Part shown: positions 18,522 to 21,277 of the stretch, in pieces | Numbering within the stretch: the first letter of the stretch is position 1 | How the letters are laid out: every line of letters begins with the position of its first letter | NCBI GenBank assembly: GCA_963514005.1 | Contig: OY740795.1 | Location: forward strand, 992,001 to 1,056,000 | DNA length: 64,000 nucleotides | From: Raja brachyura | Taxonomy: Eukaryota | Direction: 5' to 3' | Notes under the pieces: generated by a model | What the model saw: the letters and a program-made list of their open reading frames with translations, nothing else | Database searches by the model: none | What the model was told of the DNA's origin: nothing | Program-made: the position numbers and the translations under genes

Positions 18522-18587
18522 CGGGTTTAACGTACAGCGCGGTGCCGGAACCGAATACGAGTTTGCCGTTCTTTTGAGCATTCGTCG
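18522..18587 (-). CDS. TCR J segment (TNAQKNGKLVFGSGTALYVKP)
   Basis: FGSG motif and G|GTAAGT donor in phase 1, in frame with the C exon at 15335. Preceded by a near-consensus 12-RSS. Confidence 0.93.
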
Positions 18588-18615
18588 CACAGTGTTACAA
18601 CGTAATACAAAAACT
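18588..18615 (-). other. 12-RSS of the left J segment
   Basis: Reads on plus CACAGTG-ttacaacgtaat(12)-ACAAAAACT. Confidence 0.95.
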
Positions 18616-19050
18616 CTTACCTCGCTGCTGCCTTTCGAGTCGCATGGCGACGGGAGCATGAATTATCCTTACGTGCTCCTGCCGTCTCGTTTCACATACA
18701 TGAACGTGAGGAAATGAGATGGGTCTGTCTCCCTCTTGGTCCTGCACGCCCATTCATGGTTTCTGTCTGGTGATATGAATACCCCCAGAGCCCCAAATCC
18801 GCCATTACACACGACAACCTCAAAAACAGCTCTGCACACCATAGAATATAGTTGTTTGCCTTTGTGTGTACGNNNNNNNNNNNNNNNNNNNNNNNNNNNN
18901 NNNNNNNNNNNNNNNNNNNNNNNNNNNNNNNNNNNNNNNNNNNNNNNNNNNNNNNNNNNNNNNNNNNNNNNNNNNNNNNNNNNNNNNNNNNNNNNNNNNN
19001 NNNNNNNNNNNNNNNNNNNNNNNNNNNNNNNNNNNNNNNNNNNNNNNNNN

Positions 19051-19190
19051 TGCGTGTTGTGTGTGTGTATATATATGTGTGAGTGTGTTTGTGTGTGTGT
19101 ATATATATGTGTGAGTGTGTTTGTGTGTGTGTATATATGTGTGTGTGTGTGTTCCATATATATGCGCATTTGTGTGTAAGGGTATATACA
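19051..19190. repeat. (TG)n/(TA)n microsatellite next to the N gap 18873-19050
   Basis: Directly visible. Confidence 0.9.
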
Positions 19191-20933
19191 CTCACACTGA
19201 TTTTTTTTTTTTTTGCGGTTTACTGTGGTTACATATTATGTTGTGCTCCTGCAAGTAAGAATGGTATTGTTCTATCTGGAACATACGAAAATAAATCATT
19301 CGTGACTCTCGGTTGACTGTTGAGATAAAACATCCTCTCCACCTCCCAGACCCGTTTGGACGTACCGGGTGTTACATGTTTAAGCATCATTGGACACAAT
19401 TTCCGCGGGGGGGGGGGGGATATTACAACAGCCCGCCAGAACACGTGTGATGGGAGCGATTTGGAAATTCCTTAAATCTACAGGTACTTCAGAGTCAGTA
19501 TGAAACCAATTTATTCTCCACTGTTCAGCAATATTCTTGGATAGCTGGTCCAATCAATAGGCAAGCGAGACGAAGAACGATATATTCCTAATGTGGAAAT
19601 GAGATTGGTATCGATTAACAACACGTCGGTCTGGATTTCTGCGCTGTAGAAATCCACTGTGACTTCACTGAAGAACTCTGTGACTTCACTGGGACCAGCC
19701 ATGTTGCCGCAGAAGGTTACTAAGCGCATGTAAATCCCATGCGATTAAGAGTACTAAACTGACGCCTGGGGGCGATGAATAAATAGAGAACAAATGGGTG
19801 ACATTTAGCGGGTCGGTGGCTGCGTGCATGGGGGTCATAAATTTAGTTAAGGTACAACCCTTCCAGGTATCAACTTTCGTAGGTAAAAATTGAAAGGTCA
19901 TTCACAGTGGACAAGGACGCCCGTAGGGATTTCTTGCACGCGAATCGCTGAATGTTTAAGTTATATAGGAAGGTAAAAATGGTTAAAGCGTTGAAAACCA
20001 AGAGATGTACAACAATTTTACAGAGCACGGCGCGCACGCCTCTTGCTGTCGGCTTGATACAATAGGTACTGTCCACCTATCTCAGTAAGAAGTTGCGCCA
20101 CTAAATTTCACCTGGATGATTCCGCAGGTGAAATGTGGAAAAGCTGTGTTGTCAAGTGAGGTGACGTTTAGCAGACTAGGCCTCTGCCCTATTGAATCTC
20201 GAGGAATATGACGGGAGTCCATGAAAACGTACACACATCTTGTTGGCTTTCGACGTGTGGGTGAAGGGTGCAAGGGTGAAGTTTCGAGGATAATTTTGAA
20301 TTTTGAAAATGCATTCAGGCAGTGAGATTCAAGAGTAGACAAATCCTTAAGGAAAGCATCCGAACGGGCGGTAGAGTTTATTTTAGCTTATAGATACAAC
20401 ACCGAGACACCCTCTTCGGCCAACCGAGTCCGCGCTGAAAAGCGATCCGGCACTATCCTACACATTAGGGACAATTTACAATTAGCCTGCAAATTTGTAA
20501 GCCTTTGGGCGTGTGGAAAGAAATAGGAGCTCTCCGTGAATTTGAGTAACATCAAACTGGTTGCCAAACTATTATCAAACTCAGTGCCAGAGTTGGCATG
20601 GGAGCATTAATTATCTGATTCAGCATCAGTGAATAACATTTCGTTTTGAGATACAGCGCGGAAACCGACCCTTCGGCCCACCGAGACCGCGCCGACCAGC
20701 GACTCCTGCACATTAACACTGTCCCACACACACAGCAGGGGCAATTGCACTTTTATAACAATCCAATTAGCCAACAAACATGTACATTTTTGAACTAATT
20801 AACTCGGCGAAACCCACGCAAAATACAGTGAGGATCGAACCCGGGTCCGTGGCACAGTCAGGCAGCAACTCTGTTACTGGGCCCCTTGTGTTCTTATATT
20901 TCTCCGGGCGCTCCCAGCTGTATACTGCATTTA

Positions 20934-20972
20934 GGGTTTTCTACCAGGCCAGCCGATAGTTACACTACTGTG
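20934..20972 (-). other. 23-RSS of V segment 1
   Basis: CACAGTA-gtgtaactatcggctggcctggt(23)-AGAAAACCC on minus. Confidence 0.9.
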
Positions 20973-21277
20973 CGCTGCTGCGCAGTAATACACCGCAATA
21001 TCATCGACCCCTGCAAGTCTTATCTCCAAAGACAGGTTCGAGCGGTCGGCGGTACATTTGAATCCGCCGCGAATCTCCGGAGCATAACTGACGGAGGAGG
21101 AATCGAAGTATCTAATCACCCATTCCAAAGATTTCCCTGGAAACTGCCTGTACCAGAACATGACACGGTCAGTGATGTCGCCACCTGCCAGTTGACACTG
21201 GATATGATGGGCGTCTCCGCTGTTGACAATCGCGGATGCCGGCTGCGTCAGCACAATGTCGCCATCGGCTCTTGTTG
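20973..21277 (-). CDS. V segment 1 exon, IgH-like (TAILV/VH-delta-like)
   Basis: TRADG-DIVLTQPASAIVNSGDAHHIQCQLAGGDITDRVMFWYRQFPGKSLEWVIRYFDSSSVSYAPEIRGGFKCTADRSNLSLEIRLAGVDDIAVYYCAA. Acceptor TCTCCTCTTCCAG, phase 1, open frame. V identity is firm; the IgH-like class is inferred from DIVLTQP, PGK.LEW and YAP.I.G. Confidence 0.88.

Follow-up and report, generated by a model that had tools for sequence, protein, structure and literature searches.

Can a skate T cell receptor (TCR) locus assemble a chain from an immunoglobulin heavy chain (IgH)-like V joined directly to a J, without an intervening D? The question is raised by the TCRalpha/delta (TRA/D) locus of Raja brachyura, in which an IgH-like V (V1) and a long J face each other on the minus strand at a distance of 2.3 kb, and for which the original prediction proposed alpha-like V-to-J joining that would place a VH-like domain on a delta-like constant region. 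Here, we follow this unit through the whole stretch of DNA analysed, hereafter the window (64,000 nt; assembly GCA_963514005.1, contig OY740795.1, 992,001-1,056,000), and through its surroundings on the contig. The reading that we favour, and to which we would give slightly better than even chances, is an inverted second TCR-delta mini-cluster that has no free D, whose J probably stems from germline D-to-J joining and which is probably silenced by an in-frame TAA.

An inverted unit inside the TCRalpha/delta locus

On the plus strand of the contig, the V genes of TRA/D span ~67 to 988 kb and are followed, in this order, by V2, three Ds, four Jdelta, Cdelta1 (contig 1,076,680-1,076,985), the Jalpha segments, and Calpha (near contig 1,246,800). 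At least 95 Jalpha with signals lie between Cdelta1 and Calpha, where a J was counted if it matched FG.G[TS].[LV] and had a CAC heptamer, with no more than six mismatches. The minus strand of the window holds a second unit, V3-V1-J-Cdelta2-TM (TM, transmembrane/cytoplasmic exon), which sits within TCRalpha/delta, between the Valpha/delta array and the Ddelta-Jdelta-Cdelta1-Jalpha-Calpha segments, and stands back to back with the main V2-D1-3-Jdelta-Cdelta1 cluster (Table 1). The Ds of the main cluster are ~40 kb from the long J and are inverted relative to the minus-strand unit.

Table 1. Segments, signals and exons of the inverted unit and of the neighbouring main cluster, in window positions
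Feature	Position	Strand	Details
TM exon of Cdelta2 (transmembrane/cytoplasmic)	11969..12079	-	open, Arg and Lys kept; stop then donor, as in main Cdelta
Cdelta2 Ig exon	15027..15335	-	cysteine pair and splice sites at both ends intact; TAA in frame at 15229-15231
Long J, likely a germline-fused D-J	18522..18587	-	66 nt; reads TNAQKNGKLVFGSGTALYVKP; GTAAG donor
12-RSS of long J	18588..18615	-	heptamer abutting J; CACAGTG / ACAAAAACT; near-consensus
D-type 5' flank	18616..18670	-	conserved motif adjoining the nonamer, common to D1-D3 only
N stretch	18873..19050	.	178 bases; genome copy is a TG/TA microsatellite without D signals
23-RSS of V1	20934..20972	-	moderate quality; heptamer CACAGTA, nonamer AGAAAACCC
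V1, IgH-like V exon	20973..21277	-	open frame, acceptor intact; Pfam V-set E 4.6e-10
Candidate V1 leader exon (predicted)	23639..23669	-	MPTLILLLLL; TCA/GTAAGT donor, phase 1
23-RSS of V3	34720..34758	-	weak; CACCGTA / 23 / TCAAAAATA
V3, divergent TCR-type V exon	34759..35043	-	open frame with Cys-Trp-Cys; locus V-HMM iE 1.8e-8
Candidate V3 leader exon (predicted)	38276..38333	-	ATG, hydrophobic core; CAG/GTGAGT donor, phase 1
V2, paralog of V1	41130..41467	+	5' end of main cluster; predicted leader 40477-40525; poor RSS
Ddelta1 with 12- and 23-RSS	59341..59419	+	
Ddelta2 with 12- and 23-RSS	60734..60813	+	
Ddelta3 with 12- and 23-RSS	61104..61181	+	
Jdelta1 with 12-RSS	62858..62937	+	52 nt; Jdelta2-4, Cdelta1, Jalpha and Calpha lie outside the window, downstream

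V1 is 53% identical to V2 and at most 41% identical to the other Vs of the genome, IgM/IgW-type V included. V1 and V2 pair as nearest relatives (clade 99/92 in the tree), and their clade is sister to the IgM/IgW/shark Ig-TCRdelta V group at 91/84, a value under the starred threshold, while the sister placement of V1 reaches 99/95 in a tree without IgM V; the predicted IgH-like character of V1 is borne out by this position, and V1 falls outside the NAR V clade. A weaker predicted alternative to its leader lies at 21865-21904. The pairing of V1 with V2 and the back-to-back layout would fit an old inverted duplication. No close paralog of V3 was found in the genome (other matches 32-37%), and its best likeness is a NARTCR-like supporting V upstream on the contig (31%). 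As for V2, its exon and leader are open and its RSS (41428-41467, plus strand) is poor, with a 24-nt spacer and an altered heptamer, the weakest among the signals of Ig-like V in the window.

The delta-like C anticipated downstream of the J is present. An initial guess that the long J had no C downstream was overturned by a genome search with Cdelta1, which returned two matches only, Cdelta1 itself and Cdelta2; motif scans and a genome search with a C1-set model had missed both. The acceptor and donor of Cdelta2 are in phase with the long J, and no V lies between J and C. Cdelta2 is 41-42% identical to Cdelta1, 34-50% to eight other elasmobranch delta-type C and 24-27% to IgL C; among delta-type C, it reaches 50% with Heptranchias and 45% with Pristiophorus, compared with 38% and 35%, respectively, for Cdelta1. 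Its seven best library matches are all elasmobranch chains with delta-type C and TM, several of which are publicly named alpha-like or Ig-like, the delta assignment having been made here from sequence. The best protein match stands at 52% (19 matches), and three word-index protein searches were empty, a result that the tools themselves rate as weak evidence. The TM of Cdelta2 is 49-60% identical to delta TMs and 40% to that of its own Calpha; in a set of nine delta TMs it stands furthest apart, the others being 57-89% identical to one another. In a C+TM tree, Cdelta1 groups with Leucoraja Cdelta (97/98) and Cdelta2 takes no firm position; the data neither establish nor reject a clade confined to batoids (p-AU 0.30). 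In the relatedness of its C and TM, with the TM Arg and Lys, and in its location in TRA/D, the unit agrees with a TRD cluster. As a separate observation, divergence from shark Cdelta has been faster in the main Cdelta1 (33-40% identity) than in the broken Cdelta2 (36-50%).

Cdelta2 departs from an open TRD constant region with a connecting-peptide cysteine on both counts. Its TAA, seen in one assembly, lies 34 codons into the C domain and upstream of introns, and a stop ahead of introns is expected to lead to nonsense-mediated decay. The main Cdelta carries a 57-nt hinge exon with a cysteine, and a splice-site scan of the unmasked intron between Cdelta2 and TM, leaving out 171 masked bases by the TM exon, found no hinge exon with a good donor. 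Because of the in-frame TAA and the lack of a detected hinge exon, the Cdelta2 copy likely makes no chain, and the VH-like domain on a delta-like C that had been predicted as the product of the unit is not supported for the copy as assembled. Over ~820 coding bases, the unit has one nonsense change and zero frameshifts. Paralog dN/dS is ~0.44 (V), 0.46 (C) and 0.34 (TM), rough values near saturation. Given these ratios of 0.34-0.46 and the closeness of Cdelta2 to Heptranchias relative to that of Cdelta1, the comparisons argue that the unit was under purifying selection for most of its history. With the rest of the unit intact, and with Cdelta2 closer to two shark Cdelta (45-50%) than to its paralog (42%), the loss looks recent, and judged from its sequence the Cdelta2 copy as assembled more probably represents a gene that died recently than one encoding a functional receptor. 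No public run listed as RNA contains the stretch; three presumed-RNA runs match the window almost solely at repeats, show no V-J or J-C joint among the matches listed and have no bearing on expression. Runs of two other organisms have 27-41% of sampled words in common with the window and do not enter the comparisons.

The long J and the origin of its recombination signal

The 23-RSS of V1 and the 12-RSS of the long J lie where they had been predicted, face each other and obey the 12/23 rule. Signals were scored with a weight matrix trained on 90 J and three D 12-RSS of the locus, which differs from the published RIC score. The RSS of the long J scores 26.4 (training range 1.7-27.1), and that of V1 scores 10.8, close to the 11.6-18.1 of the genuine D 3' RSS. 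A matrix scan of the interval between the two signals (18616-20933) found no D-orientation 12/23 pair above zero on both sides; its top D-like pair scored -17.7 vs 38-42 for the three genuine Ds, in agreement with the predicted absence of an intact D. Two weak sites resembling an RSS, at 19199-19227 (poly-A) and 19634-19661, were rejected for wrong orientation or spacer and have no partner. The concern that the assembly gap in this interval might hide a D can be set aside: in a genome copy of the locus that is otherwise the same as the window, the N stretch is a microsatellite whose plus strand has no C whatsoever, so it cannot contain a D 5' heptamer. The free D with 12- and 23-RSS that a TRD cluster has between V and J is thus absent from the inverted unit. 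Contigs from a second sample (another study, same organism label) span 18380-18787 with 0 differences, and therefore the long J and its RSS are not peculiar to one assembly.

The prediction that the J is long holds by measurement against the Jdelta (all 4/4 at 50-52 nt) and fails against the Jalpha, among which the length is ordinary (57-66 nt, with 66 nt in 5/86). Membership among the Jalpha fits by length; the long J starts with CG (as do 4/95 Jalpha) and is without the TG start of 89/95 Jalpha, and its flank and position do not fit. The coding part matches Jdelta3 at 11/14 amino acids and two Jalpha equally well, and the best nucleotide matches are Jalpha, at 29 vs 27 (Jdelta) of 43.

Beyond the heptamer, the likeness is to the Ds of the main cluster. 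In blastn comparisons, the RSS and flank of the long J match those on the 5' side of the Ds, at 84% identity over 50 nt for D1 and D2 and 81% over 43 nt for D3, with no J among the matches listed. When the 32-nt flank past the nonamer was compared in anchored position, scores were 37 for D2, 37 for D1 and 22 for D3, while 99 Js averaged 5.4 with a maximum of 17; shuffles attained the observed score in 0/5000 (D1) and 3/5000 (D3) cases. An unanchored test over 255 nt was weaker, with shuffles reaching the score in 1/300 (D2), 4/300 (D1) and 58/300 (D3). The motif plus nonamer occurs at 4 sites in 2.7 Gb, the long J and D1-D3 (control 0), where the pattern was built from those four sites and only its absence elsewhere (other Js) is informative; it is absent from all 4 Jdelta and 95 Jalpha. 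A Jdelta1-like upstream motif farther from the long J was non-significant (61/300 shuffles).

A D-type 5' RSS and flank thus precede the J, and the J is longer than a Jdelta by about one D: a D of 11-13 nt plus a Jdelta of 50-52 nt sums to 61-65 nt, compared with 66 nt. Recognisable D nucleotides at the J start are lacking, since the first 11-14 nt show no likeness to D1-D3 beyond shuffles (p 0.21-0.95). Since the RSS is D-type and not alpha-type, it points to a pre-fused D-J rather than to an alpha-like long J, and the long J is likely an old germline D-to-J fusion, a grading held at likely because of the lack of D letters at the J start, a length compatible with Jalpha, a coding part undecided between delta and alpha and the weaker flank match in the unanchored test. 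The main rival to such a fusion is gene conversion of the flank. Of the predicted alpha-like V-to-J joining, then, the compatible signals and the lack of a D stand, and the alpha-like character does not. Direct V1-J joining would yield a CDR3 of 12-13 residues in untrimmed or lightly trimmed joins.

Possible history and competing explanations

From the anatomy of the unit, the missing D, the D-type flank and the stop codon, all observed directly, we infer the following history. An old inverted duplication would have given rise to a second set of Ig-like V, D, J and Cdelta; germ-cell RAG would then have joined the 23-RSS of the D to the 12-RSS of the J, and the joint would have left the 5' 12-RSS of the D ahead of a J that had grown by roughly the length of a D. 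While intact, the unit could have produced, in a single deletional V-to-DJ step, a VH-like domain with a short and largely fixed CDR3 on Cdelta2.

Germline joining may never have occurred, the long J having gained its D-type signal by gene conversion from the Ds 40 kb off or having retained an ancestral J/D motif that the main Jdelta later lost. We consider this improbable. It would agree with the unrecognisable D letters and the Jalpha-like length, and with a non-coding flank that is ~75% identical to D1/D2 vs 53-69% of nucleotides in the coding paralogs, but the motif is found in 0/4 Jdelta and 0/95 Jalpha, the homology ends at the heptamer, precisely where a D-to-J joint would set the boundary, and D3 keeps the motif relative to D1, suggesting constraint over recent conversion. 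It is likewise unlikely, in our judgement, that the cluster functions in the species or its relatives, in which case the TAA would be an error of the assembly or a private null allele, and V1-J-Cdelta2 would be expressed as a delta chain of VH type without a D. The single nonsense change, the unbroken frames and the intact splice sites, cysteines, TM charges and J RSS all speak for such a cluster; against it stand the failure to find a hinge exon for the interchain cysteine, which the main Cdelta has, the exceptional divergence of the TM, and the lack of a close protein relative, as far as the weak evidence of the empty word-index searches and a best match of 52% among 19 go.

Orientation leaves room for a further use of the unit, one that is compatible with an inverted, D-to-J-joined mini-cluster. 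Even today, V1 could still reach the main D-J-Cdelta1 by inversion, and the main Ds or plus-strand Vs could join the long J in the same way, so a unit that is D-less on the map need not be D-less in its junctions. That inversion mostly brings V1 to the main D1-3/Jdelta/Cdelta1, with the long J taking main Ds or plus-strand Vs, is possible if somewhat doubtful: every signal involved is compatible under the 12/23 rule, all within a span of 45 kb, V1 is intact whereas Cdelta2 is not, and newt TRB uses inverted V genes (PMC12698447, in its available part), while the RSS of V1 is just moderate and shark/ray Ig clusters rearrange by deletion according to the available part of a review (PMC5192425). 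Our first guess for the unit, a NARTCR-type cassette (an outer V-D-J spliced to a supporting V) broken by inversion, was overturned once the J was seen to lead straight to a C exon, and it is now very improbable. NARTCR-like supporting Vs do lie upstream on the contig, and V3 resembles one of them, but the C exon follows the J directly and in phase, V1 groups with IgH V rather than NAR V, and V2 and V3 have leader candidates; an NAR-type V-D-J on a leaderless supporting V, which defines NARTCR, is not what the unit contains.

An extension of the favoured mini-cluster with a D-to-J-joined J, namely that other skates or individuals hold an intact second TCR-delta in which an Ig-like V and a prejoined D-J on Cdelta2 would form a semi-invariant chain, we regard as quite unlikely. 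If true, cartilaginous fish would have, like frogs and birds, an arrangement of two Cdelta and an Ig-like V, one that might go back to the earliest jawed vertebrates. For the animal sequenced, the stop codon lowers the immunological weight of the cluster.

Comparison with known receptor loci and other features of the contig

The comparisons in this section draw on the portions of the cited papers that were available. A second VHdelta-Ddelta-Jdelta-Cdelta cluster lies inverted within TRA/D of Xenopus tropicalis (PMC3457774), and a second VHdelta cluster, TCRdelta2, is described from zebra finch and from galliforms and duck (PMC3457774, PMC5278385). As in the skate, an IgH-like V and a separate J accompany the second Cdelta of these clusters, the V with a 23-RSS and the J with a 12-RSS, and the frog cluster is inverted inside TRA/D like the skate unit. 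The clusters of frog and birds, which are expressed, include a free 12/23 D, whereas the skate unit has no free D, a D-type J signal and a stop in its C, and its host is a cartilaginous fish; V1 is a lineage of its own beside IgM/IgW V, whereas the frog and bird VHdelta V are indistinguishable from VH. By analogy, then, the unit resembles the second VHdelta cluster in carrying an IgH-related V on a second Cdelta, but differs from it in the lack of a free D and in VH identity (≤41%). A published model places the D-J-Cdelta duplication in early tetrapods "or earlier" (PMC3457774). If cartilaginous fish carry an old second Cdelta along with an IgH-like V, that dating can be tested as a choice between shared ancestry and convergence.

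TRD loci without D genes are reported from axolotl and Pleurodeles waltl (PMC12529555, PMC12698447), with two inverted TRDC clusters and a germline-joined V-J in the newt (PMC12698447). Urodele TRD has direct 23/12 V-to-J joining to Cdelta, as would be expected of the skate unit; it differs in having no D anywhere and a conventional Vdelta, whereas the skate has three Ds next door, an IgH-like V and a probable D-J join. Closer relatives offer IgH-like V by Ddelta in the TCRalpha/delta locus of sharks (TAILV, Ig-TCRdelta V) and, in shark and ray loci, IgH-like V beside Cdelta (PMC12227049). V1 and V2 fall near the Ig-like V on delta chains of catshark and basking shark and form no joint clade with them. 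Table S1 of the same study, which covers gene models only, includes no second Cdelta cluster for its four species, but labels a germline-joined NARTCR V in great white shark (PMC12227049), so that joining in the germline is not entirely without precedent at TCR loci of sharks.

Partially germline-joined clusters (VD-J, VD-DJ) are known from IgH of sharks and skates (PMC5192425, PMC2193156). As proposed for the skate J, germ-cell RAG leaves fused segments there and the outer signals are kept; those cases concern IgH, whereas the present one lies in a TCR locus and its fusion is deduced from the flank. In the available text of one review, germ-cell RAG joining is called peculiar to Ig genes (PMC5192425), and a D-type signal before the J of a TCR would preserve, fossil-like, a trace of past RAG action in germ cells at a TCR locus. 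Within the literature covered, which reached some primary papers only through citations elsewhere, we found neither a second Cdelta cluster nor a joined D-J reported for cartilaginous-fish TCR; the portions of PMC6795676 and PMC3964593 at hand contain nothing on a second Cdelta.

Several further features were observed along the contig. D1 and D2 lie within a recent ~1.4-kb tandem duplication (window 59.0-60.8 kb), and contig 1163000-1200000 (plus strand) holds a big recent Jalpha expansion of near-identical copies that have one unusual nonamer context in common. Lone J-like frames lie within the upstream V array at contig 931617, without a recognisable 12-RSS, and at 845237 (both plus strand), and are possibly remnants of NARTCR cassettes. 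A 23-RSS-like site at window 29792-29830 (plus strand), with a D-3'-type nonamer behind a short YxC-like frame, may be a V/D relic, for which HMM and tblastn gave no support. Finally, a single-exon, seven-transmembrane-like ORF at window 4771-5757 (plus strand), a putative GPCR, has similar frames among the V genes near contig 923.6, 948 and 958 kb.
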